A DNA stretch of 64,000 bases from an uncultured Gammaproteobacteria bacterium (GCA_964503265.1 CAZCYO010000004.1:162157-226156); one strand, 5' to 3'; positions 43,302 to 57,548 are shown, counted from the stretch's first letter. Numbers and translations are program-made. Notes: generated from the sequence alone by a model not told the origin.

Positions 43302-43499
43302 AGAAGTTAGATCAAAATTAAATTGTAAAAGTCAAAAAAATTTGTTTTTTGGATATCCTTTCTAAAATAGAAACGTAAGGTTACAAACCTGGGAAAACGT
43401 ATGGTTAGAAGCTCGTCAATAACCGTAATTGTTGACATTACACCATATTTCGCCTTATTTGTCAATAAGCAATCCCTAGACAAAGCGCTACTCTTGAGC

Positions 43500-43529
43500 T
43501 TGACAAGGTCCTATAGGTATTGATATACT
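43500..43529 (+). promoter_or_regulatory. conserved promoter module cTTGACAAggtcctataggtattgaTATACT (-35/18 nt/-10)
   Basis: One of at least seven copies of the same about 32-nt module (43500, 47628, 48903, 50132, 56620, 57520, weaker 57821). Confidence 0.6.
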
Positions 43530-43554
43530 CACACCTCTAGCGAGGTAATTTCAA

Positions 43555-44295
43555 ATGGCAAATCTCAAATTTCAAATAGTATTATTACTTATTACTAGCT
43601 ACTTACTACTAGCTTCCACTCCTGTGGCACTTGCAGCAACTACTCCAACGCCTACCTGCAAACCACTCTTTGGAGGTGGCATCTATAATTGTAATGGAAG
43701 TAAACTCACCGTTGATAAAACTGTTCAGGACGTTCAATCAGGCTCATTTGTCCAAAATCTCGGTGTTAACGATGCTCACTACTCTCCAGAAAGCACAGTC
43801 GCATTTAGAATCGTCGTTAAAAACCCAAGCTCAGATACCATAAAAAATATTACGGTAAAAGATACGTTACCACAATACGTTACCTATGCTACTGGAGACG
43901 GTAAGTACGATAGTGCGACAAAAAGCCTAACTATCACACTCGCATCTCTACCTGGTGGCAAAACCCAAACATACGATATAAAAGCAAAAGTTGCAAACAT
44001 TAAAGATCTTCCCCAGGACCAAGCTGTGATGTGTTTAACAAACCAAGTAATCGTTAAAAATGCAGATCAAACGATTTCTGATAACGCACAATTCTGTATT
44101 CAACGACAAGCGACAGTCGGTAACACGACACAGACTACACAAAACACCAGTAAGGGCGGCCAAGTCGTTTATCCTGTAACCGTTAACCAAACAGTCAAAA
44201 AAACGCCACCAACTGGACCTGAAGCACTTGCCTTAATCGCCCTCGCACCTGCAGGATTATTCGGCGCATTCCTCAGACGAAAAGCTGGAAAATAG
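43555..44295 (+). CDS. secreted DUF11/CARDB-like surface protein with C-terminal sorting-signal-like tail (PPTGPE + hydrophobic segment + RRK)
   Basis: Signal peptide. ITVKDTLPQYVTYATGDG repeat-domain motif. C-terminus KTPPTGPEALALIALAPAGLFGAFLRRKAGK. Paralog at 56657..57349. Confidence 0.65.
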   Translation: MANLKFQIVLLLITSYLLLASTPVALAATTPTPTCKPLFGGGIYNCNGSKLTVDKTVQDVQSGSFVQNLGVNDAHYSPESTVAFRIVVKNPSSDTIKNITVKDTLPQYVTYATGDGKYDSATKSLTITLASLPGGKTQTYDIKAKVANIKDLPQDQAVMCLTNQVIVKNADQTISDNAQFCIQRQATVGNTTQTTQNTSKGGQVVYPVTVNQTVKKTPPTGPEALALIALAPAGLFGAFLRRKAGK

Positions 44296-44508
44296 GTAAC
44301 GATTTATCAACTCTTCTCTAATCCCCCTCCTATATCGTATAATCCCTTCACTCTTATGATCTCTTTGTCACACATGCGATAAAAAAGAACTGAGAGTATT
44401 CGTTCTTTAACAGTGTACAGAGAGACAATTTCAAGGATCACACGTTGTAATGAAGTGTTTCATCACAATGTGTGGTTCTTGACTTTATTTCAGTCAAAGG
44501 AGGTAGAC

Positions 44509-45021
44509 ATGATCTGGCGATTTTCACTGGTAGCATTACTACTAGCGGCACTTTCAGGGTGTGGTAACCCTACCCCGACAGCACAACCGCCGACTGTAGC
44601 AATCACACCGACTATCCTCGCGTCGTCGCCAATCCCGACATTCACTCCGACTCGAGTGCTGCCATCCCAGATCCCCACGTTCACACCGACTGTGATGAGG
44701 ATCAGCGAGCCTTACTGCGTCGAAAACGTCCCGAATACAACCCAGTATGAGGCGACAGCTCAGGAAGTTAAGATCTCCATTACCATCAGCAACTGCGGCG
44801 TAAATCCTTGGGAAAACACACGAGCGATTCGTGTCAGTGGCACAACAGTCTTTCCCACCCCTCTGGATACTATTCCGTTCACAAAATCTGGAGAACAACG
44901 CCGGTTAACACTGCGAGGAAAGAAACCCAAAGTTGGCTTCTATGAGGCCACTTACACTATCTCTGGTCCGTTGGGGACTTCTCAAAGCTTCTTCACCGTG
45001 AACTTTGAGATTAAACCCTAG
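44509..45021 (+). CDS. small lipoprotein with Pro/Thr-rich linker
   Basis: AAGGAGG 7 nt upstream of the ATG at 44509. Lipobox LLAALSGC. Noticeably higher G+C than neighbours. Confidence 0.5.
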   Translation: MIWRFSLVALLLAALSGCGNPTPTAQPPTVAITPTILASSPIPTFTPTRVLPSQIPTFTPTVMRISEPYCVENVPNTTQYEATAQEVKISITISNCGVNPWENTRAIRVSGTTVFPTPLDTIPFTKSGEQRRLTLRGKKPKVGFYEATYTISGPLGTSQSFFTVNFEIKP

Positions 45022-45084
45022 GTTCAAATGAACTGATGTAGGAGGAGATAGAAAGTATGCTAAGGCATGCTTCTGAGAGCAGGG

Positions 45085-47373
45085 CTATTTGGCTCTATCT
45101 TGATCGCCTTGCGGCGGCCCAGGTCTTTGTTCTCTCTGTACACTATCTTCCCTATCCCTATCTGCTTGCTCTTCTCTATCCCTCTCAGGTGTCGCTCGAT
45201 CAAGTGTCGTCATTACCTTTGTATAGCGTTCTTTCGAAAGTCGTTTTACTTTATCCATATTCTGTGACTTAGATCTCGGAAGAGGTAGTGTATAGCAATG
45301 GAATGGTGACTGGGTAATACCATCAATATATAATTTAATAATTGCTTGATAATTTCCAAGTGCAAGTAAATCCTCAGGTTTAAACCGCTCTGAATATTCT
45401 TTTCCTAAATACTGCGCATCATCTGCGCCTACTAAAAATGTCATTAATGTGCCTGCATTTCCGAAAATAGCTGCTCGAACATCTTCTGGGATTTGGGCGA
45501 TATACTGATTCGCTAAGATCAAACAGAGACGGAATTTTCGTGCCTCAGACAGAATTTTAATGAACGACGTCGTAGCAAAGTTTTGAAACTCGTCCACATA
45601 CAAAAAGAAGTCTCGTCGCTGTTCCTCAGGAATTGACACGCGGTTCATCGCGGCCAGCTGTACTTTCGTGATGATCATGGCTCCAAGTAGCGCTGCATTA
45701 TCCTCTCCGAGGTACCCCTGAGACAGATTAAGAATAAGAATCTTTCCTTCATTCATCACTTTCTCAATATCAATACTCGACTTTGGATGCCCGATGATGT
45801 TTCGAATTCTGGTACTACTCGTGAACTGTCCGACTTTATTCTGAATTGGTGAAATAGCCTCAACACGGAGTTTATCTGTCATCTTTTCAAATTCATTTAC
45901 CCAGAAACTATGGAGAACTGGATCTTTCAGTCGTTCAATTACTTTCGCACGAAATGTCGGATTTCCAAGCATTTCAGGGACCATAAGAAGTGTGGGATTT
46001 GGCATCTCAAGGACCGATACGATCGTGTTACGGAAAATATACTCTAAGCGTGGACCCCACGAATCACCATATAACTTCTTAAAAATCGCGATAATACCTG
46101 ATGCGACGAGTTCTTTCTGGGATTCATCAGTAATCTCAAGTGGATTTAAGGCAAATGAGCGCTCATTATCGGCTGGATCCATGTAGACGACATCATTTAC
46201 TCGGTATGACGGAATGTACTGGAGAATATGCTCGCATAAATCACCGTGTGGATCGATGACACACAGTCCTTCCCCATTTCGAATGTCTGAGATCGCCATA
46301 TTTGCGATAAACGTAGACTTCCCAGTTCCTGATTTTCCGATGACATAAACGTGGCGGCGACGATCAGTTCGTTTGATGCCAAAGACTGATTGTTTATTTT
46401 TATATTCAGTTCTCGCAAAAAAATTAACATCTTTTTTCTCTTCTTCAGTCATTGACTCGGCCACGGGCAAGTTTTCCGGCGCTTGAGAGAGAATCGTTTT
46501 GTGCCAGGAAATGTTCGGGATCGTCGATAGCTTCATGGTCGGGAAATGAAACAGTGTGGCTAATTCCTGGACATTGAAGACATGAATATTCGTCATAATA
46601 CTTTTCTTACGATGAAGCATTTCATTCACAAAACGAGTTTTCTCCCATGGAAGCACTTTTCGAATCACTAACCCATTTCCTGAAGGATGATTAAACGATG
46701 AGAAACTCGTCCCTACTTCATATAGATAGTGGGCTGAGCGTTCCTTCGTCTCAGCATTTACTGCGACACGAATGGATACTCCAAATCCAGCTGACGCTGC
46801 TTTTTGGGTGATTATTGCCGCATATGGATTGGCAACTGCTGCACCACTGCCGTCAGTATGTTTGGCTGAAGCTGTCGAATTCGCTGCTTTTTGCCAAGAC
46901 TGAGAAATGGGAACGAGTAAAAATTGAACTGAAACTGTATCTCCCATCTGGCTTTTCGCGAGTATCCCAAGCACTGATGAGAGTGGATCCACTTCTTTAA
47001 ACTCACTAAAGTAGCGAATCGGATAGACATAACTATGCGTCGTTTTAAGCCACGCTGTCGAGAGTGTGTCCTTTTTCGCAAACATTTCAGGCAAGTAATC
47101 TGGGACTTTCGCAAGCATAGCTTTTGTATATTGGGAGATAAGTTGGCTTTCGATAAATGATTGGTAGGCAGTCGGCACAGAAACGTAGAAATGGATAATT
47201 TGCTCTGATACTGCTATTTCAAGCGTTAGTGGAATTCCTTTTTTCCATAACAAATAAAAGCGGTGACGCATGTTCGTCAAACTCGCTAAAAATTGCACCA
47301 TGGATTCAGGCGTTTCCTCACCAGTACGAGATGTTTTAATCTCAAGCAGAACTCGATCAGTTGGAGTAGGCAT
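45085..47373 (-). CDS. TraD/VirD4-like P-loop ATPase (type IV coupling-protein / DNA-transfer family) with acidic Arg/Asp/Glu-rich C-terminal tail
   Basis: Walker A VIGKSGTGKST. Downstream blocks YVDEFQNF (Walker B-like) and LILANQYIAQIPEDVRAAIFGNAGT typical of TrwB/TraD/VirD4-type ATPases. A HerA/FtsK-like ATPase cannot be excluded. Confidence 0.5.
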   Translation of the reverse strand: MPTPTDRVLLEIKTSRTGEETPESMVQFLASLTNMRHRFYLLWKKGIPLTLEIAVSEQIIHFYVSVPTAYQSFIESQLISQYTKAMLAKVPDYLPEMFAKKDTLSTAWLKTTHSYVYPIRYFSEFKEVDPLSSVLGILAKSQMGDTVSVQFLLVPISQSWQKAANSTASAKHTDGSGAAVANPYAAIITQKAASAGFGVSIRVAVNAETKERSAHYLYEVGTSFSSFNHPSGNGLVIRKVLPWEKTRFVNEMLHRKKSIMTNIHVFNVQELATLFHFPTMKLSTIPNISWHKTILSQAPENLPVAESMTEEEKKDVNFFARTEYKNKQSVFGIKRTDRRRHVYVIGKSGTGKSTFIANMAISDIRNGEGLCVIDPHGDLCEHILQYIPSYRVNDVVYMDPADNERSFALNPLEITDESQKELVASGIIAIFKKLYGDSWGPRLEYIFRNTIVSVLEMPNPTLLMVPEMLGNPTFRAKVIERLKDPVLHSFWVNEFEKMTDKLRVEAISPIQNKVGQFTSSTRIRNIIGHPKSSIDIEKVMNEGKILILNLSQGYLGEDNAALLGAMIITKVQLAAMNRVSIPEEQRRDFFLYVDEFQNFATTSFIKILSEARKFRLCLILANQYIAQIPEDVRAAIFGNAGTLMTFLVGADDAQYLGKEYSERFKPEDLLALGNYQAIIKLYIDGITQSPFHCYTLPLPRSKSQNMDKVKRLSKERYTKVMTTLDRATPERDREEQADRDREDSVQREQRPGPPQGDQDRAK

Positions 47374-47627
47374 ACAATATAATTTACAATTCCTAATTTC
47401 TAATTTCTAATCAATACAAGACACAGTAAACAGCTACAGGTAAATCATTTGAGTTTGATTAAAAATTTTACATGTTAAATTATAAATTCTGTCTTTATTC
47501 TACTCTACTCCCCATTATTTGACAAACGTTTGGCCAATTGAAAACAACCAACCAGGTAATCCCCCTCTTGCATTTTTGATTTATATAGTATAAACATAAT
47601 ATACATTACCAGGTTTATCTGATGAGC

Positions 47628-47655
47628 TTGACAAAGTCCTATAATATGCTATACT
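47628..47655 (+). promoter_or_regulatory. conserved promoter module copy (TTGACA-16-TATACT) driving the leader that contains element A and the SLH gene
   Basis: gcTTGACAaagtcctataatatgcTATACT. Confidence 0.55.
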
Positions 47656-47710
47656 CTGCTGACGTACGCTAAATCATTCTCTCCTCGTGAGGGATTTTTT
47701 TATCGCTACT

Positions 47711-47825
47711 GCACATTAACCCTCCTACGCTTAAAGCTACGGAAGGGTGAACATGCTAAAGTACCATTTTGCTAATAAGAAAGGGCTTGCCCTCTCGAAG
47801 CTTTAGCGAAGTGGGGCACATTAAC
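47711..47825 (+). repeat. element A of the gcacattRac-bounded repeat family (about 96-nt body between 10-nt direct repeats), in the 5' leader of the SLH gene
   Basis: gcacattaac at 47711..47720 and again at 47816..47825. Body is ccctcctacgc-[gcttaaagc hairpin]-tacggaagggt...gggcttgccctctcgaagctttagcgaagtgggg. Confidence 0.6.
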
Positions 47826-48034
47826 AAGAGAGAGTGTATTTTAGAAAAGAATAGTTTTCTAGGTACTACCTGCAGTGTTTCGAATCCACTTCGAGATAGC
47901 GCTGGTGGTGCCTGGAAAGGAGCTAGCAAAGAAAGGAGGAAACATTAGATACGACAAGTCGTCGCATCTTATTCCCTGCTTTCCACGCGCCACTAACTAA
48001 CGTCGTTACTGTATAAATTCGGAGGCGCCAAATT

Positions 48035-48667
48035 ATGTTTCGCCGATTCGCACCCCTAGCGCTCGCGTTGATCCTCACCCTGGGTACTGTTACATCCGCA
48101 CTCGCGGGTGGCTTATACCCGGACGTGTCGGACAACGACAGCCGCATAGTGGCGATCCAGTGGATCACCTCTATGGGAGCCATGACTGGTTACACCGACA
48201 AGCGGTTTGGCGTTAATGACAACGTCACCCGCGGGGAGATGGCAAAAATCCTCGGGGTTATCCTCGGCGTTCAGCCCCAAATCGGGGCTACGTGCTTCAA
48301 CGATATGGGATCCTACGATCCTACGCTGCGAGCGTACGCCTGTAAGCTGGCCCAAATGGGCCTACTGAAAGGCTATGCCGACGGCCGATTCGGGCCAAAC
48401 GATCCAATCTCGCTAACGCAGATGATATCACTCATCGTGAGGGCGAAAGTCGCCTCTGGCGACTGGGTAGCCGTCACGACGGATGATCCCTCGATCTACC
48501 CGAACGTAACGACCATGAGTACCAGGCTCGAGATACTGACGTATCTCGAGCATCAGATTCAGGTGCCCAAGTCGCCCAATGTCCACGGGAATCTGAATGG
48601 AGCGTACGCACCGGTGACTCGCGGCGATGCCGCTTGGTACTTAATGCTTAGCTTCTACAAGACGTAA
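48035..48667 (+). CDS. secreted protein with S-layer-homology (SLH) domains; first gene of the high-GC mosaic region
   Basis: Signal peptide ALALILTLGTVTSALA. SLH-like segments GYTDKRFGVNDNVTRGEMAKIL and GYADGRFGPNDPISLTQMISLIVRA. G+C far above the window background. Confidence 0.6.
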   Translation: MFRRFAPLALALILTLGTVTSALAGGLYPDVSDNDSRIVAIQWITSMGAMTGYTDKRFGVNDNVTRGEMAKILGVILGVQPQIGATCFNDMGSYDPTLRAYACKLAQMGLLKGYADGRFGPNDPISLTQMISLIVRAKVASGDWVAVTTDDPSIYPNVTTMSTRLEILTYLEHQIQVPKSPNVHGNLNGAYAPVTRGDAAWYLMLSFYKT

Positions 48668-48678
48668 GTTCACGGCTA

Positions 48679-48722
48679 GTCCGCCACATAGTGGGGCCTA
48701 CCGGCTCTACTGTGTGGCGGAC
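48679..48722 (+). terminator. long terminator-like hairpin after the SLH gene
   Basis: gtccgccacatagtgg / ctactgtgtggcggac forms a roughly 15-bp stem 12 nt after the stop codon, followed by a C/T-rich tract. Confidence 0.5.
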
Positions 48723-48902
48723 AACGCCACTTTCTTCTCTAAATACAGATTTTTAATACCTTTCTATGAACGAGTAATAATTGCATTACTCCCTTCAAAC
48801 AAAAACTAAATAAAATCGAGTTACTCCTCTCTCTTGTTATAATTTTCCTCATTTGACATCACTTCTCCTCTTTTCTATGCTTATTCTAGGTAGTATTTTC
48901 TT

Positions 48903-48932
48903 CTTGACAAAGTCTTATAGGAGATACTATAC
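48903..48932 (+). promoter_or_regulatory. conserved promoter module copy (TTGACA-18-TATACT)
   Basis: tcTTGACAaagtcttataggagatacTATACT. Confidence 0.55.
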
Positions 48933-49024
48933 TGCCGCTACGTTTTATTATCACTGAATATCTTCATTGCTTGATATATCCGTGACATAAAACAGCATCG
49001 TTACCACCAGCTCAAGCTAAATAA

Positions 49025-49093
49025 GGTTTACCCCTAACGTAGCTTTAGCCCCGATTGAATCGGGGTTAGCGAAGTGGGGCTCTTTAACAAGGC
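49025..49093 (+). repeat. element B, a 3'-half copy of the same family carrying an inserted 16-nt palindrome
   Basis: ggtttacccctaacgtagctttagc[cccgattgaatcggggttagc]gaagtggggctctttaacaaggc. Compare the 3' half of C. Confidence 0.5.
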
Positions 49094-50131
49094 ACACAGA
49101 TTGATATTTTTTGTTTTCGAGAGGAAAACGAGAAAAGGATGACATATTCCCCGTCAGCTAGTAGCTTACAAAGTTGTGTAAATTACTAGCTGATTTGTGG
49201 GAGTATACGATTTGGCGTGATCGTCTACGATCCCAGATCAGTAGAGACTGTCCCCAGCCTCTTCTCCATCCATCCTTCCTCCTCATTTCCTCCTCTATCC
49301 GGGAAGCAGGGAACCCAACCCTGCTTCCCCCCCCTTCTCTTTTGAGAAGATTTACGGCTTAGGAGGTGCCACACTCCGAAAGCTTCAAAAGTAATTTCAT
49401 TACTTTTCCAAGTGTATAAAGGCACTTGTTATTCATATCTGGCTTCTTGCTAGATATGGTGTGTGGGCAGGTGGTTCCCGACACCTGCCCCACTCTTTTC
49501 TGCCATCTTCTTCTCGCCCCGGCGTGGTTTTTACCAAAGCCGGGACGAGATTATACATACTGAGGACCTTCTCATCACTCTATCCATTAGACTCGCACCG
49601 CGGGTCAGGATGGCGGGTTACGACCCGTTACGATGAGAAGTCCTCAGAAGGCCCGGATTCGTCCGAACGATCCCCGGGGGAGTTTTTTCCCCGGAGATTA
49701 GCCTGTTTCAGCTTTCGGAGACAATATCGTCACCGGAGCTGGACTTGTATCTAGCAGGAACTTCTCGCATCACGAGAAACGCACCGGCATAGTAGCCGGT
49801 ACTTTCTCACGTGAGTGAGACCTGCACCTATCTGACGTCGTCAGGAATCCTGGGGTCGGCCTTCTGGCCGACCCCACAATCTCTTACGAGAAGCGAAAGA
49901 AAAAAACGATCTATCATCTGTGTGCCTTACTTTTTTATAACCCCACGCTTCAATTACCGCCTATTTCCCGAATTACGGCCATTATTTGGTACGTTTTCCC
50001 CGACTCGGAGATTTTCATCATAGTCGGTCAGCTATAGCTTTTCTTCTGGTATTCCGTAACGCTCCCCGCCTCGATCATCTTTACTATATAGAAATTTACT
50101 CGTCTCACCACAAGAGCAGAAACCGGACGAC

Positions 50132-50160
50132 TTGACAAAACTATAGGACTGTGATATGCT
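50132..50160 (+). promoter_or_regulatory. conserved promoter module copy (TTGACA-17-TATGCT)
   Basis: cTTGACAaaactataggactgtgaTATGCT. Confidence 0.45.
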
Positions 50161-50464
50161 TCATTTCTAGTTGTGGTTTGGGATATGTGTTGGAGTATCA
50201 GATAACCCTCACGACTTTATAACAGTAAAACGCCCAACATATATCCCCCGACCGTAACAGGCGGGTTTTTTTGTACCTTTTTGCATTTGCGCAGAAAGAA
50301 AACAAATAACTCGGAGCACTTTAACAAGGCAACGGATAAAAAATTAATTGATACTTCTTTACTAAAAGGAGTTCCTGATGCGTACTGTCCACAATATGAT
50401 GGTGCGCGCCAGGAGCTCCTGAATGTGAGGGAGCTAGACAGAAAACTCTTGAAAGGAGTTACTC

Positions 50465-50704
50465 GTGAAAAACATACTCTCAGTTCTCCACTTCATCGCT
50501 GCATTTCTTGCGGTGATCGCAGTGTCGGGAACAATATTCCTCATACTCTTTGGTATTCATGTAGAAGTCCATATTGTCTGCTTTACCGCAGGAATATCAG
50601 GGCTATTCGCTTTCACGATCACGCTTCTCTATGTAGTGTTCGCACTGCCATCTGGAAACCTGGTGTCATCGGAAGTTCCGACCGCGCCTGATAACTCCCG
50701 GTAG
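50465..50704 (+). CDS. small two-TM membrane protein (high-GC)
   Basis: GAAAGGAG upstream. A GTG at about 50462 may be the true start. Two hydrophobic helices. Confidence 0.35.
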   Translation: MKNILSVLHFIAAFLAVIAVSGTIFLILFGIHVEVHIVCFTAGISGLFAFTITLLYVVFALPSGNLVSSEVPTAPDNSR

Positions 50705-50733
50705 TTAGAGCCGCACAGAAAGGATAGAGACAC

Positions 50734-51195
50734 ATGCCACATCCAACATCGAGGCCAACAAGCAGGTTCGCGCTCGTCGCGAGCGTGTTTGCCTTAGTCG
50801 CGAGTATCTCAGTCTTCATCTTTTCCTTCAACGCTAACACAGCCGCGAAGGAGGAATATAACCGCGTCGCAGCACATGCCACGGAGGTCTCCTCTCGGCT
50901 GTTTGAAAACCGCATTAGCGGTAATCTGACTAAGGGGGTGCTCCTCCAGTACTGTGCTATCAGCTGTGATAGCGCCGACTTTACGGAGATCACAGTAGAT
51001 GGCTTCACCGTCGTCAAGTACACGCCTCCCTTTCGGGGAGCATGTGCGCAGATCAGGCGAAGCGGATACATTATCACAGCGCCCTCAATTTCGGTTGAGA
51101 GTCGAGATATGTATCCCCTCAATGAACCACAAATCGCTTACTGCGGGACGTGGTTCTTCGGAGCCAAATTTCCGGAACAGCCAGTACGCAAGTAG
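50734..51195 (+). CDS. membrane-anchored Cys-containing extracytoplasmic protein (high-GC)
   Basis: RBS AAAGGA. N-terminal TM ALVASVFALVASISVFIF. Confidence 0.4.
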   Translation: MPHPTSRPTSRFALVASVFALVASISVFIFSFNANTAAKEEYNRVAAHATEVSSRLFENRISGNLTKGVLLQYCAISCDSADFTEITVDGFTVVKYTPPFRGACAQIRRSGYIITAPSISVESRDMYPLNEPQIAYCGTWFFGAKFPEQPVRK

Positions 51196-51273
51196 CGATA
51201 CTGCTGTTTTCACCCTCTCTAGAGACCCGCGTGGGGGATCTACCGACACACTATCTCTATTCTAGGAGGTCAC

Positions 51274-51483
51274 ATGCAACCATCCGCACAACAAAAACCT
51301 ACTCCCGCAGTGACTGCGGGTAGGATCGCCGAGACGGCGATCCAGACCTGCGCCATACATGGCATTCAAATGCAACCCATAAGGGGTTGGTGGAATGCCA
51401 CTAAGCGTGAGTATGTCAGCGGTGATGTGTGCCCGGAGTGCGAGAAGAGCGAAGGCATCTACACGCCAAAGCTCGTCCAGTAA
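51274..51483 (+). CDS. small Cys-containing protein (possible zinc ribbon, CAIHG...CPEC)
   Basis: RBS TAGGAGG 5 nt before ATG; high-GC. Confidence 0.35.
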   Translation: MQPSAQQKPTPAVTAGRIAETAIQTCAIHGIQMQPIRGWWNATKREYVSGDVCPECEKSEGIYTPKLVQ

Positions 51484-52100
51484 CCCTCAGGAGGCAACAT
51501 GCTATTTCTTGCACTGACGACAGACCCAGAGTATATCCCGATTGATTCGGGAGAAACTCTCGTGTACGCCCTTGGTGTCCTCTTGGTTTGCTGGCTCTTT
51601 TACGAGATCGGCCACTACCGCCGTTAGCATACGGTGGGATGAAGGCTCGTTCTGGTTAACATATCCGTTGCCTTCATCTCTTATTAGTACAATACTGTAA
51701 CGATAAGAGATGAAGTTTTTATGAGAAATAGCTATGATTTCTTCTTCAATTGCGAAGAATGGAAGACTAGTTATTTCATTGCACATTTACAAGGCAACCT
51801 TATACGTATAACTAACTCTCTTCAGATACAAAAAGAGGGCTCATATATGCCGCTTTTACTGTTCTCGGGAAACCAGCAGTACTCCAAAAGCGGCAGGTAT
51901 GAGTCCTCAGAAATGGTCTGGGGAAAAGAAGAAAGGATACCTTCGTGTTCGTGCCGTTTGACCTGATTTCATCGAACTCAGGCACGGATTCTCAAGTGTA
52001 TCTCCTCGTGCTCGCTGCACTAGGAGCATATCTGACAATCGAAGACATCATTCGGAATTGGCGCAAGTAGCGCTAAGAAGACATCTCTACAAGGAGGCAC

Positions 52101-52576
52101 ATGACCACAAAGCAGATGCTCATCATCGCGGCCGTGATCGGTACGCCGATCGGGCTCTGGCTGATCTTCGCGATCATCATCTTCGATGTGTTGACGAAAA
52201 AAGCCCTGAAAGGGTTTGAATTCGTCATCCGACACGCGATGGGCGGCCACTAGCCGTTAGAAAGGAGCATACTATGCCCGACACTGTGAGCATCCTACTC
52301 ACGATCGCGATCGCAGCCATCATCATCGTGGCAATTTGTTTGTTTCGATCTGAAGATGTGAGTAATACCTCACACATCAGCGGCGCTGAGAAGCGCTAAA
52401 GAAAGGAGCGACCCATGTTCGCACGAATCTGGCTGTGGCTCGCACTCGCCCTCGGCCTCGATGACGGCGTGATCTACTCGGATCCTGGGGTGAATTTGGG
52501 CTACGGCTCAATCAACCCCACTCCTGTCAAGTGGAGCGACTCACTTCGTGAGCTGCTCGACGACGGAAAAATCTAG
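52101..52576 (+). other. array of three consecutive small hydrophobic-peptide ORFs (52101..52253, 52274..52399, 52415..52576; 50, 41 and 53 aa), each with its own AAGGAG(G) RBS
   Basis: Each ORF has a strong SD at -6 to -9, one predicted TM helix, high G+C and tight spacing. Confidence 0.35.
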
Positions 52577-52837
52577 CCTTCCTTTCTTCACCATGTTATA
52601 CCTAACTCATTTTCCAACACCCTTTTCCCTAAGACCGAGGCATTTTCGCTTCGTTTCACTGCAGTTTTCTGTAGCGATTTCTTCCGGATTGGGGGGATGG
52701 CAGATGTTTCAGGTTGCCTTACCCCCTATGGCGAGAAATCATTCTCGATATAGGGGGTGAATTTATTAGATTAGAATTGTTTTCTTACTTCTTCAATTGC
52801 GAAGAAAAAGAAAACGGTTATTTCGCACATTAACCCT

Positions 52838-52967
52838 CCTACGCATAAATTCTAAACAGAATTTAGCTACGGAAGGGCAAGACAGTACGCCATTAAGCTA
52901 CTTCTTTGATAGGTTTACCCCTAACGAAGCTTAAGCGAAGTGAGGCACATTAACAAAGCATACGAAT
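52838..52967 (+). repeat. element C, a full copy with an extended hairpin (taaattct-aaac-agaattta)
   Basis: gcacattaac at 52838..52847 and 52958..52967. Upstream conserved hairpin cttcttcaattgcgaagaa at 52790..52808. Confidence 0.6.
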
Positions 52968-53106
52968 ACAGATTTCAGCGCGAGGAGAGGATATCTATCA
53001 CCTCTTTCCGCTGAAATCTGAAAAAATCAGATGAACGATCACTTCGTGAAAGGACTGCCTATGGCTGACTGATCTACTGTCGGATTGTTTAGATAAGGAG
53101 GTTCAC

Positions 53107-53682
53107 GTGTCTTCTCGAAAGGCTCACGCACTCTTTGCTATACTTCTGCTCCTGATCGCATTCATGCCAAGTCCGGCCGCAGCGAGCAACGATGCTCAAT
53201 TCGGTCGGCCGATCGTCGCTCCACAAATCTTGTGGCGCGAAGCGCAGCTCACAACCTGCGCGAACGTCTCTTCGGCGACACCGACATGTATCGTCATCGA
53301 CCTCATGGTCGATAACGATGGCAGCCACATTCAAGAGTTCTCGCTTACCCGCGAGGACGCTCGGAAGAATCGCCGGGCGATCCAAGTTTCGGTGTCTGAG
53401 GACACTAAAGGACTTCGGATCACGGACACCAGCGCGACATTTTCTCGCACCATCAACGCAAAAAATGCCGTGGACGGCAAGGAGATCAAGATCAAAGTCG
53501 ATCTCACCTGGCGTCAGTCAGGACCAGAACGCCCCTTCGAAGGGCCACAGATTCCTGAAGAACCCCGCTTCTTGCGTCAAGCACGCGTGAGCGGGACAAT
53601 CCAGATCGGATCTGAAAAACCGATCACCGTCTCAAGCAACGCTGGCGTTCTCATCCGGTGCATCGCGACACCGGCACAATAG
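53107..53682 (+). CDS. secreted hypothetical protein (GTG start, high-GC)
   Basis: RBS AAGGAGG. Signal peptide ALFAILLLLIAFMPSPAAAS. Confidence 0.45.
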   Translation: MSSRKAHALFAILLLLIAFMPSPAAASNDAQFGRPIVAPQILWREAQLTTCANVSSATPTCIVIDLMVDNDGSHIQEFSLTREDARKNRRAIQVSVSEDTKGLRITDTSATFSRTINAKNAVDGKEIKIKVDLTWRQSGPERPFEGPQIPEEPRFLRQARVSGTIQIGSEKPITVSSNAGVLIRCIATPAQ

Positions 53683-53880
53683 CCTGAAGCTTCAGGTGCA
53701 GATACGATTTGTAAGACAGTGCTGTCTTATATGGGTCAATGACGACCCGTCGTATCTCACTTGTGAGGCCAAAAGGTACATATATTCGTATGCTTTCTGT
53801 CTTCCGATAACATCGGGACTGATGAGTTCTATTCACTGCAAATGCGTAGTGATGAGAACGAAACAGAATTTGATTTACTA

Positions 53881-53945
53881 TCCACTCAATAAACTCGAAG
53901 GGCTCGCCCCTCGAAGCTTTAGCGAAGTGGGGCACTTTGACAAGG
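53881..53945 (+). repeat. element D, a 3'-half copy
   Basis: tccactcaataaactcgaagggctcgcccctcgaagctttagcgaagtggggcactttgacaagg is nearly identical to the 3' half of E. Confidence 0.5.
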
Positions 53946-54086
53946 TATACAGGATTTAACATTCTTTCACGCAAGTGAAAGAGTTGTCTTATATTTTTTT
54001 AACGTGCCGCGAAGTAGGGAGAGGAATACTCCCCTCTCTCTTCTTCGCGGCACTGATAATTGATCGATACGCCTAAGGGGGTAAAG

Positions 54087-54476
54087 ATGCTCAAGGAACT
54101 CCTCAAAAACGATCTGGTCTGTTATGCACTGTCGATCCTCGTTTTCTGTCTTCTCTGGCTGGTAGCAAGGTTGTTACCATCGAAGCTCATGGACGACTAC
54201 AATCCGGATTCAGTCGAGCAATAAAGGAGGTTTATCTATGGTCGACCTGTTAGCTCCACTATTCTTCTTCGGAGGAAGTGGGCTCATCATCGTTCTCATC
54301 TTTCTCACCATTCCTGGACCAGTTCCAGCGTGGTGGGTGGATTTTATTGAGCGGTTTCACCGCACATAAGGAGGACAGGTATGGACGGTCGTACAGTCGA
54401 GCTGATTTTCATCATCGTATGGATCGTGCTCAGCTACCCAGCATACTGCTGGATTCGTGGCGAGCGCATACCGTAA
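54087..54476 (+). other. second array of three small hydrophobic-peptide ORFs (54087..54224, 54238..54369, 54381..54476; 45, 43 and 31 aa), each with an AAGGAGG-type RBS
   Basis: Same organisation as 52101..52576. Each product has one TM helix. Confidence 0.35.
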
Positions 54477-54591
54477 GGAGGCTAATACATGCCTACTGCG
54501 CGTTCACCCCCAGACGAGCGTATGATCCCGTTTCTTTTTCATCTCCCGGCGAGTGCCGGGAGCTCTGAGAGAGAATATCAAGAGAGGTCCG

Positions 54592-55767
54592 ATGGACAAA
54601 ATCTCATGGATTCTCATGATCTTCGGTGTGATCCTCGCGATCATGGTCGTTCCCTACGCCAGGAGGCGTTCGGAACGCAGTCACGAAATGCGTGACCGCA
54701 TCATGCGGTCAACATTGATCCTCGGGATTGCCATCATGGGCGCCCAGGGTCTCGCATTCATTCACCCGGCTTCAGCCGGGGCAGAGCCCTACTATCCGAC
54801 ACAGGTTCACACCTTCGTTCGGAGCGAGGCGCTCCCGCAAAGCTTCAGCTTCACGCCTAATGGCGTGCAAGACTGTGGTTGCGGCGGACTCGCCTCGCTG
54901 AACATGCCACAAGGAAATGTGGCACTAAGCGAACAAGGTCTTCCTTTGGCAACTCGCTACGGCGGGGTACTCACAGTCGTGTTCGGCGAGTCGACCAAAT
55001 TCCGGGTTTCAAGCCCGGATGCCGAGTTGACAATGCAGGTGGACGGGAAACCGTTCGCCAAGACGTTCTATCTCACAGAGATCGGAAAAACCTTGACCCT
55101 GGACATCAAACCAGGTGACAAGGTTGACCGCCTCATGGTGGAGCTCAAGTCGAGCTTCCCCATGGTGAACATTTACGCTGATGAGGCACCCATCCCTGGC
55201 AGCATCTATTTCCCGCAGACCCGGCATAACATCGCCAAGGTATTCCAGTCTTACTGGGAGAACCATGGCGGCGTGAGCGTGAACGGCATGGCCGTCACCA
55301 CGAGTGGGTACGAGCGAAACGGTCCAAATATCTACCTGGTGCAATACTTCGAGCGCGTCCGCCTGGAGTACCACCCGGAGAACACTGAGGAAAAGTACAA
55401 GATCTTGCTCGGCCAGTTCGGCGTCGTGATTCACGGTGGAATCGATCCACCTATTGCGAAGCCTACTCCGAGCCAATACGACGACAGTATCCGGTACTTC
55501 CCTGAGACTGGGCACACCGTCGCGGGACGCTTCCTAACATACTGGAATACCCAAGGCGGGTTGAGCCAGTTCGGCTACCCGATCACCCAGGAATTCTACG
55601 AGCGCCTCGATGACGGGGTATCGCACACCGTGCAATACTTCGAACGCGGGCGCATGGAATTCCACAGCGAGAACAGGGAGCCCTATATGGTGCTGCTCGG
55701 CCAATTCGGCCGGCAGATGGCCGCTATCACAGCGGCTGATCGCGACAGCACCAGCACCCACCGCTAG
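54592..55767 (+). CDS. membrane-anchored extracytoplasmic protein with tandem ~45-aa repeats (F..YW...GG....GYP...EF.ER......HTVQYFERGR.E.H.EN.....LLGQFG)
   Basis: TM near the N-terminus. At least two copies of the repeat, which is shared with 61085..61903; high-GC. The ORF track starts earlier, at 54553. Confidence 0.5.
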   Translation: MDKISWILMIFGVILAIMVVPYARRRSERSHEMRDRIMRSTLILGIAIMGAQGLAFIHPASAGAEPYYPTQVHTFVRSEALPQSFSFTPNGVQDCGCGGLASLNMPQGNVALSEQGLPLATRYGGVLTVVFGESTKFRVSSPDAELTMQVDGKPFAKTFYLTEIGKTLTLDIKPGDKVDRLMVELKSSFPMVNIYADEAPIPGSIYFPQTRHNIAKVFQSYWENHGGVSVNGMAVTTSGYERNGPNIYLVQYFERVRLEYHPENTEEKYKILLGQFGVVIHGGIDPPIAKPTPSQYDDSIRYFPETGHTVAGRFLTYWNTQGGLSQFGYPITQEFYERLDDGVSHTVQYFERGRMEFHSENREPYMVLLGQFGRQMAAITAADRDSTSTHR

Positions 55768-55874
55768 TCGACTGTGATTACTGATAGCATGGTACCCAGG
55801 ATTCACCTGGAGGGAGCTTAGCTCCCCCATGCTCGATGGTCATTGAACTTTTCTTTCTACAAGGAGGGTAACCA

Positions 55875-56168
55875 ATGTCCACGATCGATCTCATCAATAC
55901 CCGCTGGGACGCATACACTCCCAGCACTGAGGAGCCTCCTCGCCCGCTGAACCTTCGATGGTTCTGGCGAACGCTTCTCGCCGTCCTGGATGGCATTATC
56001 GTCATGCGGGACTGCCTCAGCCTCGGGCTGAGCATGCTGATCGTTTTCTTGGAATGGACACACGTCCTAACCAAAGGAAAACGTCGGATCGTGCCTACAA
56101 TCGGCGGGATCTGGATCATGGTGGCCATCACGGTCACCATTCTCGATCACATGTTCTACCCTCGATAA
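55875..56168 (+). CDS. small polytopic membrane protein (high-GC)
   Basis: RBS AAGGAGGG. Three hydrophobic helices. Confidence 0.4.
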   Translation: MSTIDLINTRWDAYTPSTEEPPRPLNLRWFWRTLLAVLDGIIVMRDCLSLGLSMLIVFLEWTHVLTKGKRRIVPTIGGIWIMVAITVTILDHMFYPR

Positions 56169-56619
56169 GACAACGAACCCACGCGAGCCACCCCGCTCAC
56201 ACCCATACTACGGCCTCTGCGCTGTGGAACATGTGCGTGAGCTGACGTAACCCGCCGAGTGTGGATCAAGTAACTGAAAGGAGATTTGGAATCGATATCT
56301 ATCGATTACCGTCTCCCGCCAGAGACTTCCAAATCCCCTCCTGTATACCTTGATCCATACCTTCTCAATAGTATAATTTTTAATTTGAAATTCGAAATGT
56401 TAAATCACTGTTTAAAAATTCAATTTAGTAATACATTTAGATTTGATTAAAAATTTAACATAGTAAATCTACAATTAAAGCAAGCTATAGGCTTATTATG
56501 GCGTGTCCCTTTATTTTTCGTAATAAGTCTATCAATACTAATATCACTACTTCTTATCTGCTTTGTTTTCAGCCTTTTTTACTCTTCAGTAGCATATAAA
56601 AGTACTCTTGCAATTACTA

Positions 56620-56649
56620 TTGACAAAGTCTTATAAGATATGCTATACT
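56620..56649 (+). promoter_or_regulatory. conserved promoter module copy (TTGACA-18-TATACT) 7 nt before the ATG of 56657, predicting a leaderless transcript
   Basis: atTGACAaagtcttataagatatgcTATACTcccatttATG. Confidence 0.55.
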
Positions 56650-56656
56650 CCCATTT

Positions 56657-57349
56657 ATGTTAACAACAAAAAACATTTTACTCGCTACAGGCCTTACTCT
56701 TGGTCTTCTTTCTATGTCTACAACAGCATTTGCTGATTATGGCAATTGCCAAACAACCTATGGTCAATACGGTGGACAAAACTGTAATCCATCAATTAAT
56801 CTGTCAATTGATAAGAAAGTACAAAATCCTTCAGACAATTCATTCGTCGATAACTTAGGCGCAAACGAGACGAAGTACAATGCGTCATCTCCTATTACCT
56901 TTCAGATTAAAGTTACCAATACTGGAACAATCGCTGCTACAAACGTCGTTGTAAAAGACACGCTCCCAGCAACTGTTGATTATGTATCTGGACCTGGATC
57001 TTTCGATACTAACAGTAAAGTATTCTCATATACTCTCGGACAGATTAATCCTAATGAAACGAAAGTGTTTACTATTACTGCAAAAACTCCAAGTGAAGAT
57101 AAATTTGCTTCAAACCCAACCTGCATGACTAACACTGCAACTGTGACTGGTAACAGTGCAAACACTGCGACAGATACAGCTCAATTCTGTGTCCAAAAAG
57201 GAAATCCTACCACGAAAGGTGGAACTCCTGTCTATCCAGCACCTACTGTTAAAAACACACCATCAACTGGACCTGAAATGCTCCCACTGATCGGACTTAT
57301 CGGAAGTGGCTTTATCGGCTCACTTCTTCGAAAACGAACGAGTAAATAA
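56657..57349 (+). CDS. secreted DUF11/CARDB-like surface protein with PSTGPE sorting-signal-like C-terminus (paralog of 43555..44295), low-GC host-type gene embedded in the mosaic region
   Basis: Signal peptide. VVVKDTLPATVDYVSGPG motif. C-terminus KNTPSTGPEMLPLIGLIGSGFIGSLLRKRTSK. The same promoter module as 43555 lies upstream. Confidence 0.65.
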   Translation: MLTTKNILLATGLTLGLLSMSTTAFADYGNCQTTYGQYGGQNCNPSINLSIDKKVQNPSDNSFVDNLGANETKYNASSPITFQIKVTNTGTIAATNVVVKDTLPATVDYVSGPGSFDTNSKVFSYTLGQINPNETKVFTITAKTPSEDKFASNPTCMTNTATVTGNSANTATDTAQFCVQKGNPTTKGGTPVYPAPTVKNTPSTGPEMLPLIGLIGSGFIGSLLRKRTSK

Positions 57350-57379
57350 GCACGTATATTGCCAAAACGACTCGTTCAC

Positions 57380-57403
57380 ATCCTGCGAAAGCAGGATTTT
57401 TTG
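57380..57403 (+). terminator. intrinsic terminator after the DUF11 gene
   Basis: atcctgc-gaaa-gcaggat hairpin followed by TTTTTTG, about 30 nt after the stop. Confidence 0.75.
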
Positions 57404-57519
57404 TATAAAGAGAGAAAAGATCAAACATTGCAAAGCATTACCTTTTCAAATAGGAAAATAAAGGACTCATTTATCATAAAAAATGGAGTAAATTTATAGC
57501 TATGAAGGAGCCGTGAGAC

Positions 57520-57548
57520 TTGACAAATCCTATAGGATATGATATAGT
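57520..57548 (+). promoter_or_regulatory. conserved promoter module copy (TTGACA-17-TATAGT), immediately upstream of a MITE
   Basis: cTTGACAaatcctataggatatgaTATAGT. Confidence 0.45.

Follow-up and report, generated by a model that had tools for sequence, protein, structure and literature searches.

The locus lies in a stretch of 64,000 nt, hereafter the window. Here a Rho gene (41976-43301) precedes a run of surface-protein genes, small ORFs, leader elements, and cassettes, in which one short promoter module occurs six times (Table 1). Neither nusB nor rpsJ is encoded within the window. Three assemblies, from two sample accessions, are concordant on the low-GC/high-GC junctions. Relatives and metagenome contigs used for comparison carry L numbers.

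Table 1. Promoter modules, leader elements, cassettes, and ribozyme of the island (positions in the window)
Feature	Position	Strand	Sequence elements	Unit or content
Module copy 1	43500..43529	+	TTGACAAGGTCCTATAGGTATTGATATACT; -35 TTGACA, 18-nt spacer with CCTATAGG, TG, -10 TATACT	DUF11a (43555-44295), then cassette C0; orthologous modules in L036 and L040
Module copy 2	47628..47655	+	TTGACAAAGTCCTATAATATGCTATACT; 16-nt spacer, TG, TATACT	Start of SLH-protein unit (cassette C1)
Module copy 3	48904..48933	+	TTGACAAAGTCTTATAGGAGATACTATACT; 18-nt spacer, without TG	Start of cassette C2
Module copy 4	50132..50160	+	TTGACAAAACTATAGGACTGTGATATGCT; 17-nt spacer, TG, TATGCT	Conserved leader RNA and cassettes C3-C6; orthologues in L036 and L040
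Module copy 5	56620..56649	+	TTGACAAAGTCTTATAAGATATGCTATACT; 18-nt spacer with palindrome TCTTATAAGA, TG, TATACT	Would drive DUF11b (56657-57349)
Module copy 6	57520..57548	+	TTGACAAATCCTATAGGATATGATATAGT; 17-nt spacer with palindrome TCCTATAGGA, TG, TATAGT	B-type leader and cassettes C7-C8
A leader element	47709..47831	+	A1 hairpin and A2 hairpin, boxA at end	
A copy	49006-49111		A2 only	
A copy	52802-52995			
A copy	53867-53947		A2 only	
A copy	59971-60161			
57821 site	57816..57851	+	boxA-like GTTCTTTGACA and 5' arm of C7 helix; reads GTTCTTTGACAAGGTACGC	
C0	44402..45145	+	boxA GTTCTTTAACA (11/11); 5' arm AGTGTACAGAGAGA (44412); 3' arm TCTCTCTGTACACT (45131)	ORF end 45021; cassette conserved in L036 and L040
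C1	47816..48840	+	boxA GCACATTAACA; 5' arm TAACAAGAGAGAG (47822); 3' arm CTCTCTCTTGTTA (48827)	SLH gene 48035-48667
C2	49079..49929	+	boxA GCTCTTTAACA (11/11); 5' arm AAGGCACACAGAT; 3' arm ATCTGTGTGCCTT (49916)	
C3	50316..51675	+	boxA GCACTTTAACA; 5' arm AAGGCAACGGATA; 3' arm TATCCGTTGCCTT (51662)	Three small ORFs
C4	51781..52721	+	boxA-like GCACATTTACA; 5' arm AAGGCAACCT; 3' arm AGGTTGCCTT (52711)	Small hydrophobic ORFs
C5	52945..53797	+	boxA GCACATTAACA; 5' arm AAAGCATACGAATA; 3' arm TATTCGTATGCTTT (53783), abutting hammerhead	ORF 53107-53682
Type III hammerhead (predicted)	53794..53869	+	Core GUC, CUGAUGAG, and CGAAAC all present; 32.3 bits (below gathering score), E 2.4e-05	C5/C6 boundary
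C6	53932..56356	+	boxA GCACTTTGACA; 5' arm CAAGGTATACAGGA; 3' arm TCCTGTATACCTTG (56339)	Five ORFs including a 404-aa protein, 54553-55767
C7	box at 57816	+	5' arm within 57816-57851; helix partner 59308-59337	
C8	60114..61928	+	boxA GCACATTGACA; 5' arm GACAGTACGAGAGATT; 3' arm AATCTCTCGT(C)ACTGTC (61910)	ORFs to 61903

The -35 of the six modules is close to TTGACA and the -10 close to TATAAT, with spacers of 16, 17, 17, 18, 18, and 18 nt. An earlier note on this DNA had described consensus hexamers at 16-18-nt spacing, co-oriented with what follows, and this holds, with 10-11 of 12 positions matched in all six copies. An extended -10 TG lies one base upstream of the -10 in every module except that at 48904, while among the other sites listed only 1 of 32 has it. 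Directly upstream of three modules, the preceding unit has terminator-like hairpins (48714-48730, 57380-57397), and a second promoter-like site, TTGACA-17-TATGCT, lies at 48853, 50 nt upstream of the 48904 copy. We conclude that the six modules are sigma-70-type (housekeeping-sigma) promoters with an extended -10, from which initiation is predicted.

How far does this set exceed chance? A gapped exact pattern gave four matches, compared to none in 100 shuffles, and a three-block scan allowing up to 3 mismatches returned exactly the six modules (shuffle mean 0.04, maximum 1, over 100 shuffles). The same scan detected no further module in the remaining 50 kb of the window, and a slightly different pattern detected none in the 10.8 kb past its right end. 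Between 43 and 63 kb, five modules are the only sigma-70-like sites at 11 of 12 positions and the 50132 copy is one of seven at 10 of 12; the six stand among the nine top sites (10-11 of 12) in these 20 kb. The earlier note had set intergenic against random placement: all six modules are non-coding, intergenic, on the + strand, and in the direction of the downstream gene or element, and their excess is far over chance. Because of 1-2-nt indels between copies, the ungapped consensus as first written has zero matches, even with 3 mismatches allowed. Seven copies had been claimed, of which those at 43500, 47628, 48904, 50132, 56620, and 57520 stand. The weak seventh copy at 57821 was rejected as a promoter, as it has only TTGACAAGG and no -10.

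Two modules (43500 and 56620) precede paralogous DUF11 surface genes, as originally described. At 56620, the ATG of DUF11b, which opens a good signal peptide, lies 7 nt past TATACT; the mRNA is therefore predicted to be leaderless, in agreement with the original proposal. Orthologues of DUF11a in two relatives start 9 nt past their own -10, without a Shine-Dalgarno sequence. From this spacing, we read the DUF11 surface-protein units as transcribed with no or almost no leader.

Paralogous modules are 77-90% identical over about 28-35 nt, while the 40-nt flanks on each side are 25-33% identical. Orthologous modules from three related Patescibacteria genomes are 66-90% identical, with 25-55% identity in the upstream 40 nt and 23-40% in the downstream 40 nt in five of six comparisons. 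Their positions are retained in L036, L040, and L043. The orthologue of the 47628 module in L036/L037 is 89% identical, versus 25% upstream, and the region 50128-50434 shows 84% identity to relatives. L043 is a more distant relative, with Rho identity of only 75%; there, DUF11b is preceded by a module 86% identical to the 57520 copy. The -10 drifts among three orthologues of the 50132 promoter (TATGCT, TATAAT, TACGAT), while TTGACAA..C(C)TATAG is constant. A spacer core, C-Y-TATA-R, is present in 12 of 12 copies from four genomes, while adjoining spacer bases and even the -10 drift; it often reads TCCTATAGGA or TCTTATAAGA and lies 10, 12, or 13 nt from the -10. The spacer conservation reported earlier is real in orthologous promoters with randomized flanks, although part of it, (T)G n TATACT, is simply the extended -10. 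Since the core is kept while flanks are randomized among genomes with 75-90% Rho identity, these alignments indicate that it is under long-term purifying selection, beyond recent copying.

Four modules open structured leaders of 150-300 nt that terminate in a boxA-like box. The "non-coding repeat elements" originally placed behind modules are these leaders, predicted to be transcribed, rather than unrelated repeats. GYTCTTTAANA is an experimentally derived functional boxA consensus (PMC5725501). A relaxed boxA pattern gave 8 matches where 0.8 were expected, all intergenic and on the + strand. The GYTCTTTAANA consensus, which is gamma-proteobacterial and may not be that of the host, is matched at 11 of 11 positions at 44402, 49079, and three boxes in L036. 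Measured against the same gamma-proteobacterial sequence, 50316 and 57816 match at 10 of 11 positions and 47816, 52945, 53932, and 60114 at 9. Several boxes depart from it at 1-2 positions (for example, GCACATTAACA), and the consensus of the window's own box family is GYWCWTTRACA. In some leaders a T-run hairpin precedes boxA (47678-47700, 50250-50275); such hairpins would end transcription before the box unless they are boxB-like or act as attenuators. Compared with L036, the A element at 47709-47831 is an insertion of 122 nt, with a direct repeat of 10 nt, GCACATTAAC, on either side, at a boxA. Homologues of the A leader occur on 12 metagenome contigs. On one contig only, L025, which carries the same A2 leader family, there is an rRNA leader in which a promoter, a hairpin with a T-run, and GCACCTTAACAAC precede the 16S gene.

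The nine cassettes have nine different arm pairs. In each, the 5' arm comes right after the box and its complement right after the last ORF; therefore, each cassette RNA could close on itself. Seven cassettes have perfect 10-14-nt complements that begin 6-10 nt into or after boxA, and in the remaining two the helix, in its expected position, is interrupted. The predicted helix of C2 reaches 34 pairs. The longest ORFs of this cassette measure 57-97 aa, none more, and each opens with GTG or TTG. When the boxes of the window and 12 loci were pooled, 17 of 27 had a downstream partner of at least 10 nt, compared to 2 in the upstream control, both of which are neighboring L036 cassettes with identical arm sequence. 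The C4 arms differ on both sides from those of the L036 orthologue (GGCAACGGAT/ATCCGTTGCC), so that pairing is maintained by compensating changes. From the arm pairs, the partner counts, and these changes, we class the flanking arms as predicted stalks. Summed helix energy is equal for the sense and antisense strands (-264.6 and -266.8 kcal/mol), and thus wobble pairs do not show + strand RNA to be the folding strand.

The putative ribozyme at the C5/C6 boundary has the GUH triplet, CUGANGA, GAAA, and three stems with stem III open, as expected of a type III hammerhead. Owing to its long stem II it falls below the Rfam gathering score of 48.5, as does, for the same reason, a copy in L043 (3838-3964, 35.8 bits). 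As read by eye, stems I and III of the L036 hammerhead, located in the same place, differ by compensating changes. In L043 the hammerheads come after 3' arms, and only some cassette ends carry one.

We consider it probable that one promoter family with an extra spacer core heads expression units built like rrn operons, with a boxA leader and a closing stalk. Each module would begin a transcription unit of its own; the units make up a variable island of cell-envelope genes, higher in GC, on a Patescibacteria (candidate-phyla-radiation) chromosome. By analogy with rRNA operons, lambda nut, and E. coli suhB, the box would load NusB/NusE, so that RNA polymerase would resist Rho while transcribing long C-rich RNA that is not translated. 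The cassette RNA would close on itself through its arms, in the manner of the processing stalks of 16S and 23S. Some cassettes would end in a hammerhead and others in a terminator, followed by the next module. For the cassette RNAs, we infer Nus factor binding, stalk formation, and stalk cleavage.

What does the spacer core do? A bound regulator, one of the options in the earlier note, is possible. Our first choice is an operator for a dimeric co-regulator, with a polymerase or DNA-shape element nearly as likely. We tentatively favor a dedicated dimeric transcription factor, which would make the six promoters one surface/cassette regulon, switched as a group, and is compatible with rrn-like units. 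The cores at 57520 (TCCTATAGGA) and 56620 (TCTTATAAGA) are perfect 10-bp palindromes a symmetric double change apart, and the presence of the core in every copy despite drift of the -10 and neighboring bases would suit an operator. Its distance to both hexamers varies by 1-3 nt, a variation that an occluding repressor tolerates. Other promoter-like sites in the window, for example those at 7538 and, on the - strand, 41889, lack the core, and there are no more modules in about 60 kb outside the island. However, most copies depart from a perfect palindrome (TCCTATAAT, TCTTATAGG, A-CTATAGG), and a palindrome of 6-10 bp is short for an operator. Moreover, no DNA-binding protein gene or candidate regulator was recognized in the window. 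Patescibacteria have few regulators.

Polymerase-contacted spacer elements are known in E. coli. It is possible, short of likely, that the core is intrinsic to the promoter: a polymerase contact, or a flexible TA-rich segment aiding an over-long 18-nt spacer, with the likeness among copies arising from selection for strength and no regulator involved. The 18-nt spacer found in most copies is slightly long, and in 7 of 12 copies TATA stands 12 nt ahead of the -10. Promoters of a similar form, TTGACA-N-(C/T)CTATAA(G/T), are present on metagenome contigs that have A-type leaders (L021, L033, L035) and also in unrelated Firmicutes and CPR genomes. Yet a distance to the -10 that varies among 10, 12, and 13 nt is loose for a polymerase contact, and the core is missing from other strong-looking promoters of the same genome and from the L025 rRNA promoter.

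The earlier note had also suggested that the promoter belongs to a portable or mobile module. In the stretches fetched from relatives, which exclude the units after 57520, L040 lacks the 47628 and 48904 units and L036 lacks the 48904 unit, and each missing block takes its own promoter module along. Whole units, promoter included, are thus present or absent between relatives, but mobility does not extend to the module itself. No inverted repeat of at least 8 nt flanks any module within 150 nt, and there is no consistent target duplication at the modules, flanking direct repeats of 5-8 nt being inconsistent. Since the module has neither kind of boundary repeat, it is no mobile element in itself. 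Nor is all of the DNA behind the modules newly acquired: the SLH, C3, C4, and C6 leaders are common to a relative with 90% identical Rho. The 48904 unit is found only in the window. One cargo protein has a domain typical of high-GC Chloroflexota.

Could the similarity of the modules result merely from recent duplication, through a promoter-bearing mobile element (MITE-like, cf. Correia) or segmental duplication, with the spacer unselected? This would fit the gain and loss of promoter-containing units among relatives, the paralogy of the two DUF11 genes, and the 80% likeness of 47440-47480 to 56428-56468, upstream of 47628 and 56620. We nevertheless judge it improbable: likeness stops abruptly at the module edges, falling to 25-33% in the 40-nt flanks; terminal inverted repeats of at least 8 nt and consistent target duplications are absent; and orthologous cores are kept amid randomized flanks at 75-90% Rho identity.

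A still less credible view takes the modules and the boxA-like and arm sequences as DNA recombination sites of an integron-like cassette system rather than transcription signals. An array of short cassettes of varied GC with similar repeats between them, cassette content that varies among relatives, and an A element with a 10-nt direct repeat at boxA all recall such a system. However, no integrase or recombinase was found in the window (island ORFs and flanking genes) or in the 10.8 kb to its right, apart from a 92-aa GIY-YIG ORF, and the R''-L''/L'-R' symmetry that a single attC site shows is missing from the repeats. An attC site is a 60-140-nt imperfect palindrome (RYYYAAC ... GTTRRRY), one to a cassette, whereas the ends of A are direct (GCACATTAAC) and the inverted arms stand at the two ends of each cassette. 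The inverted arms, 0.5-2.4 kb apart and cassette-specific, fit RNA pairing rather than a protein site; hammerheads, which act only as RNA, lie at cassette ends; and all boxes share one orientation, that of transcription. Hardly worth entertaining is a phage-type single-subunit RNA polymerase promoter (T7 class: ...CACTATAGG) in CTATAGG, overlapping the bacterial one: the 50132 copy reads AACTATAGGAC and others CCTATAGG, sharing 7-8 nt with the T7 promoter initiation region, but upstream positions are unlike T7, T3, and SP6, TATAAT or TATAAG replaces TATAGG in several copies, the window has no phage-type polymerase or phage gene, and the motif has no match in viral contigs.

As promoters heading boxA leaders and stalked cassettes, the modules resemble extended -10 (TGn) sigma-70/sigma-A promoters in their TTGACA, 16-18-nt spacer, TG (five of six), and intergenic, co-oriented placement. 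They add the mid-spacer C-Y-TATA-R, kept across species and outside the standard model. For putative mobile promoters, the definition asks for 80% identity or more across a stretch of 50 nt or longer between -150 and -50 of non-paralogous genes (Matus-Garcia, Nijveen and van Passel 2012, PMC3575422). Like these, our modules are near-identical promoters upstream of non-homologous genes with no recognizable mobile element; in contrast, their 77-90% identity is limited to some 30-35 nt, no farther than the polymerase footprint, and their reuse is bound to one island and to whole expression units.

Integron arrays with a Pc promoter likewise consist of tandem short cassettes of mixed composition whose content varies between strains. 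In the island, by contrast, neither an integrase nor sites of the attC type were found, a promoter stands before several individual cassettes, and the boundaries appear to behave as RNA signals. Type III hammerheads flank genes in prophages (Perreault et al. 2011, PMC3088659). In both settings they separate genes that share a transcription unit; this implies that long transcripts may be cut into gene-length RNAs. The difference is the absence of a prophage context in the window, where the ribozyme follows a 3' arm and such ribozymes alternate with boxA leaders.

BoxA-dependent Nus regulation of non-rRNA genes is known from CRISPR arrays. The suhB-type boxA regulation of E. coli and Salmonella (PMC5725501) shares with our units a boxA in the 5' UTR or before long untranslated RNA and a host with Rho. 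In the window, by comparison, the box occurs at least 9 times in 16 kb, is coupled to a long-range helix, and lies 100-250 nt from the first start codon rather than at most 50 nt.

The rRNA operon leader offers the parallel of a strong promoter, hairpins, a GYTCTTTAANA box, and one helix strand, with the partner strand after the "gene"; on L025, a contig with the same leader family, the rRNA leader has the promoter, the hairpin, and GCACCTTAACAAC. Our cassettes differ in that they encode proteins (an SLH protein and small membrane and secreted proteins) and form many tandem units, each with its own arm sequence, for which Nus binding and RNase III cleavage are predictions. Leaders built like those of ribosomal RNA operons would be an unusual mode of expression for protein genes.

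What are the six sites of about 30 nt at 43500, 47628, 48904, 50132, 56620 and 57520? All are intergenic, lie on the plus strand, and carry a perfect TTGACA, a 16-18-nt spacer and then TATACT, TATGCT or TATAGT. An earlier note had claimed seven copies of this promoter module; these six stand, while the seventh, at 57821, lacks a -10 and falls into a boxA-like family (GTTCTTTGACAAGG). The rigid consensus proposed there, searched ungapped with up to three mismatches, matched nowhere because the copies differ by indels, and gapped patterns were used in its place. A gapped exact pattern matched four of the six modules and nothing in 100 shuffles. A three-block scan picked out these six sites alone, where shuffled sequence gave 0.04 on average, and the 50 kb that make up the rest of the window yielded no module; a slightly different pattern detected none in the 10.8 kb past its right end. 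When 43-63 kb was scanned independently for consensus matches, the modules made up six of the nine best-scoring sigma-70-like sites, and five of them are the only sites to reach 11/12. An extended -10 TG is present in five of the six versus one of 32 other listed sites. Identity among modules is 77-90%, compared with 25-33% in the 40 nt on either side, and similarity ends at the module edges. Judged by their sequence, the promoter reading of all six is well supported. A second promoter-like site (TTGACA-17-TATGCT) lies at 48853-48881, 50 nt upstream of the 48904 module, and the stretches 47440-47480 and 56428-56468, upstream of the 47628 and 56620 promoters, are 80% identical.

A motif scan of GTDB representative genomes gave 17 single hits and no genome with several. 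The hits are spread over unrelated Clostridia, Erysipelothrix, candidate phyla radiation (CPR) and other genomes, and we regard them as generic strong promoters, with the exception of a repeat in Erysipelothrix. Four genome bins of the latter (L007, L014, L015, L018) hold four near-identical copies of CAGACTGTTGACAAAGTCTTATAAGGATAAGATATAGTTTTATCGAATAATCT at contig ends, which we take to be an unrelated repeated promoter-bearing element found by the scan. Viral contigs matched neither the promoter pattern nor the core of the A element, one of two repeated leader families, and nothing here points to a phage link for either.

Is the conserved spacer more than a trace of recent copying? Syntenic loci were fetched from relatives via their Rho proteins, which are 90% (L036-L039), 88% (L040) and 75% (L043/L044 and L041) identical to that of the window; the island is absent from L041. 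Orthologous places in relatives keep the promoters of DUF11a (the surface-protein gene after 43500), of the SLH unit after 47628, and of 50132, and in L043 a copy 86% identical to 57520 precedes DUF11b, the gene that follows 56620 in the window. Orthologous modules are 66-90% identical versus 25-55% in the adjacent 40 nt upstream. Among the three orthologues of 50132 the -10 has drifted (TATGCT, TATAAT, TACGAT) and TTGACAA..C(C)TATAG is unchanged. Retained modules, diverged upstream flanks and a drifting -10 together show that the spacer core (CCTATAGG; consensus form C-Y-TATA-R) is under purifying selection and is more than a copying trace. The proposal that conservation extends into the spacer therefore holds for this core, kept across relatives, and part of what had been noticed is simply the extended -10 TG.

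The core sits 10-13 nt from the -10. Its forms TCCTATAGGA and TCTTATAAGA are perfect 10-bp palindromes, interrelated by a symmetric double change, and neither is accounted for by the standard promoter model. The core may be the operator of a regulator or, nearly as probably, a polymerase or DNA-shape element. An inner TATAAT/TATAGG serving as the -10 of a second promoter was rejected, since in none of the copies does a -35-like hexamer stand 15-19 nt upstream of it. Readings of the modules as integron, MITE or phage-polymerase features were rejected as well. Between Rho and DUF11a, the block 43390-43450 (GGAAACGTATGGTTAGAAGCTCGTCAATAACC...) is nearly invariant across three genomes and is probably the minus-strand leader of the rho mRNA.

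The modules had also been suggested to be portable, which holds for whole expression units: it is these that are gained and lost among relatives, and no transposon-like ends were found on the modules themselves. L043 contains Rho, DUF11a, the coupling protein, DUF11b, two boxA cassettes and a glycosyltransferase. In this genome DUF11b lies immediately next to the coupling-protein gene, which suggests that the 9-kb island was inserted into that intergenic region. In L040 the coupling-protein gene directly adjoins the 50132 promoter; L036 has the SLH unit in addition, and the window adds the 48904 unit to the content of L036. Every added block reaches from about 80 nt upstream of its own promoter module to a little past its own 3' arm. 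Leaders are more conserved than cargo, which makes them useful markers for such islands in metagenomes. Cargo ORFs have lost DNA similarity, although kinship is still recognisable, as the small-protein tails DDYNPDSVEQ and EDYDPDSVDP illustrate.

Two modules, 43500 and 56620, do head paralogous DUF11 genes, whose products both have a signal peptide and a C-terminal anchor-like tail. The DUF11b ATG lies 7 nt past the -10, and in L036 and L040 the DUF11a ATG lies 9 nt past it without a Shine-Dalgarno; these distances support the earlier prediction that 56620 would give a leaderless mRNA. The 43500 copy of the window has lost that ATG and instead uses a 25-nt leader containing GAGG.

Downstream of each of the other four modules comes a repeated, structured, non-coding stretch of 150-300 nt. 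Every family A repeat after a promoter terminates in GCACATTAACAAG, GCTCTTTAACAAGG or GCACTTTGACAAGG. The corresponding boxA-like motif, GYWCWTTRACA, has eight matches against 0.8 expected, all intergenic, on the plus strand and within 44.4-60.1 kb; a ninth box, at 51781, is a TTTACA variant. The functional gamma-proteobacterial boxA consensus is GYTCTTTAANA (PMC5725501); two window boxes and three L036 boxes match it at 11/11 positions. A hairpin, TTCTTC AATTGC GAAGAA, occurs at 51744-51762, 52788-52806 and 57783-57800, and also in L036; it stands 19 nt before the box at 51781, 16 nt before 57816 and 17 nt before the box-like A start at 52823, and may serve boxA as a boxB-like partner.

Rfam at gathering thresholds reported tRNA only, and at relaxed thresholds the hammerhead alone was credible; the A element, the B element and the leader after 50132 matched no described family. 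A-element homologues occur in 12 metagenome contigs. Relative to L036 5480-5520 (minus strand), the A element at 47709-47831 is a 122-nt insert exactly at boxA, flanked by the 10-nt direct repeat GCACATTAAC, and in the C6 leader A2, the second hairpin half, stands alone between hammerhead and boxA. The A element could be mobile, or a product of recombination between boxes. The B element has a closing stem TGTCAT/ATGACA and three hairpins, and its third copy is interrupted by a 277-nt insert bearing a 92-aa GIY-YIG nuclease ORF (62967-63245, minus strand). The region 50128-50434 is 84% identical to relatives versus 71-81% for neighbouring genes. Its segment 50165-50434, the leader after 50132, which may be a small RNA or attenuator, is ordered as a long hairpin (GGGATATGTGTTGG...CCCAACATATATCCC), a terminator-like T-run hairpin and boxA.

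Directly 3' of each box lies an arm of 10-14 nt, and in C0-C6 its perfect reverse complement stands just past the last ORF of the cassette. Arm sequence differs in every cassette, and between C4 of the window and its L036 orthologue both arms have changed with pairing kept. Of the 27 boxes in the window and 12 loci, 17 can be matched with a downstream partner 10 nt or more in length; an upstream control gave two, both of them from neighbouring L036 cassettes with identical arm sequence. The design of box and closing arm is also present in L043 and in an unrelated metagenome contig (L035). Helix energies do not distinguish sense from antisense; reading the helices as RNA rests on their one-way orientation, the box and the ribozymes. 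In C2 no ORF exceeds 97 aa; its largest, of 57-97 aa, all start with GTG or TTG. C2 is absent from L036 and L040 and would be a non-coding RNA or else a cassette that has decayed.

Abutting the C5 3' arm is a type III hammerhead (53794-53869, plus strand) whose core is intact. L036 has one at the same place (about 1196-1261, minus strand) with compensating stem changes, and in L043, with hammerheads at 3838-3964 and about 2100-2280 (both minus strand), both cassettes end in a 3' arm and then a hammerhead. All core nucleotides are present; the long stem II keeps the scores, 32-36 bits, under the Rfam gathering score. Gene-flanking hammerheads have been described in prophages (PMC3088659).

Coordinates of cassettes (boxA to 3' arm; arms are the complementary flanking sequences) and other features
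Feature	Start or 5' arm	End or 3' arm	Strand	Remark
C0 arms	44412	45131	+	
C1 arms	47822	48827	+	
C2 arms	49089	49916	+	
C2 whole	49079	49929	+	promoter, boxA, predicted 34-pair closing helix
C3 arms	50326	51662	+	
C4 arms	51791	52711	+	
C5 arms	52955	53783	+	
C6 arms	53941	56339	+	
C7 arms	57821	59308	+	interrupted helix, expected place
C8 arms	60120	61910	+	interrupted helix, expected place
B element (about 96 nt), first	57580	57675		
B element, second	59433	59526		
B element, third	62935; 63254	62976; 63275		two parts
Rho	41976	43301	-	
Two adjacent giant ORFs	15351	37515	+	3998 and 3387 aa

The window is chromosomal, with about 40% GC, and encodes leucyl-tRNA synthetase, a VirD4-like coupling protein and a LysM/M23 peptidase. 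Its Rho has homologues that bear the names Patescibacteria or Levybacteria, which places the organism within the CPR. The neighbouring ORFs 7573-8994 and 10191-11624 have an identical 31-nt minus-strand stretch in common (at 8563 and 11193) and may be paralogues. From about 47.7 to 62 kb GC climbs to 0.47-0.63 and ORFs are short. Misassembly was rejected as the cause: junctions of low and high GC are covered at 43.5-50 kb and around DUF11b by the Logan assembly of SRR12487046 and around DUF11b by ENA assembly ERZ4216102, which may not be independent of the window's own assembly, and the same mosaic recurs in related species. The C-terminal repeat domain of a 404-aa cargo protein (54553-55767) is about 50% identical to Thermomicrobiales and Chloroflexia proteins, lineages that may be its host or donor; this likeness would fit an origin that was ultimately foreign and high in GC. 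This gene and the one at 61055-61903 have repeated DNA in common (55339-55389, 55630-55680, 61460-61510), read as a peptide motif near VQYFERxRxEYHPEN. No recombinase was found among window genes or in the flanking sequence searched.

In our view the main interest is in what directly follows the promoters. We think it likely that an rrn-like expression platform is reused here for envelope gene cassettes; it would comprise promoter, hairpins, boxA, a cassette-specific stalk, and a ribozyme or terminator. A bolder reading, tentative and short of probable, is that this Patescibacteria lineage expresses a set of fast-evolving, higher-GC envelope genes, partly Chloroflexota-like in origin, by a pathway copied from rRNA operons. 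Each unit would be started by a dedicated promoter carrying a spacer operator of its own; by analogy, polymerase loaded via boxA would be Rho-resistant and read through; a predicted 5'-3' helix would close each cassette RNA, which RNase III or the hammerhead might then excise; and promoter, leader, cargo and arms together would be the currency of island gain and loss. No description of such a platform for envelope cassettes was found in the searchable literature, which is absence of evidence only.

Why does this matter? To our knowledge, almost nothing is known of transcription signals in CPR bacteria, since they are rarely cultured. The locus offers a directly testable promoter family with an extra conserved spacer element, evidence for promoters travelling with whole expression units, and a repeated case, supported by comparative genomics, of boxA, long-range helix and ribozyme combined for protein-coding genes. 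It is also a system for asking how a Rho-bearing bacterium keeps long, untranslated, foreign-looking transcripts alive. If rrn-like processing is true, the role of Nus factors would extend well beyond rRNA, suhB and CRISPR arrays. The 48853 site and the 48904 module resemble the tandem arrangement of rrn P1/P2. The rRNA leader of L025, a metagenome contig with the A2 leader family, runs promoter, T-run hairpin, GCACCTTAACAAC, 16S, an order of parts shared with the cassette leaders. In a closer relative, L041, the rRNA sequence available comprised no more than the 5S and the 3' part of the 23S. The cassette helices are laid out like the processing stalks of 16S and 23S, here around protein-coding RNA.
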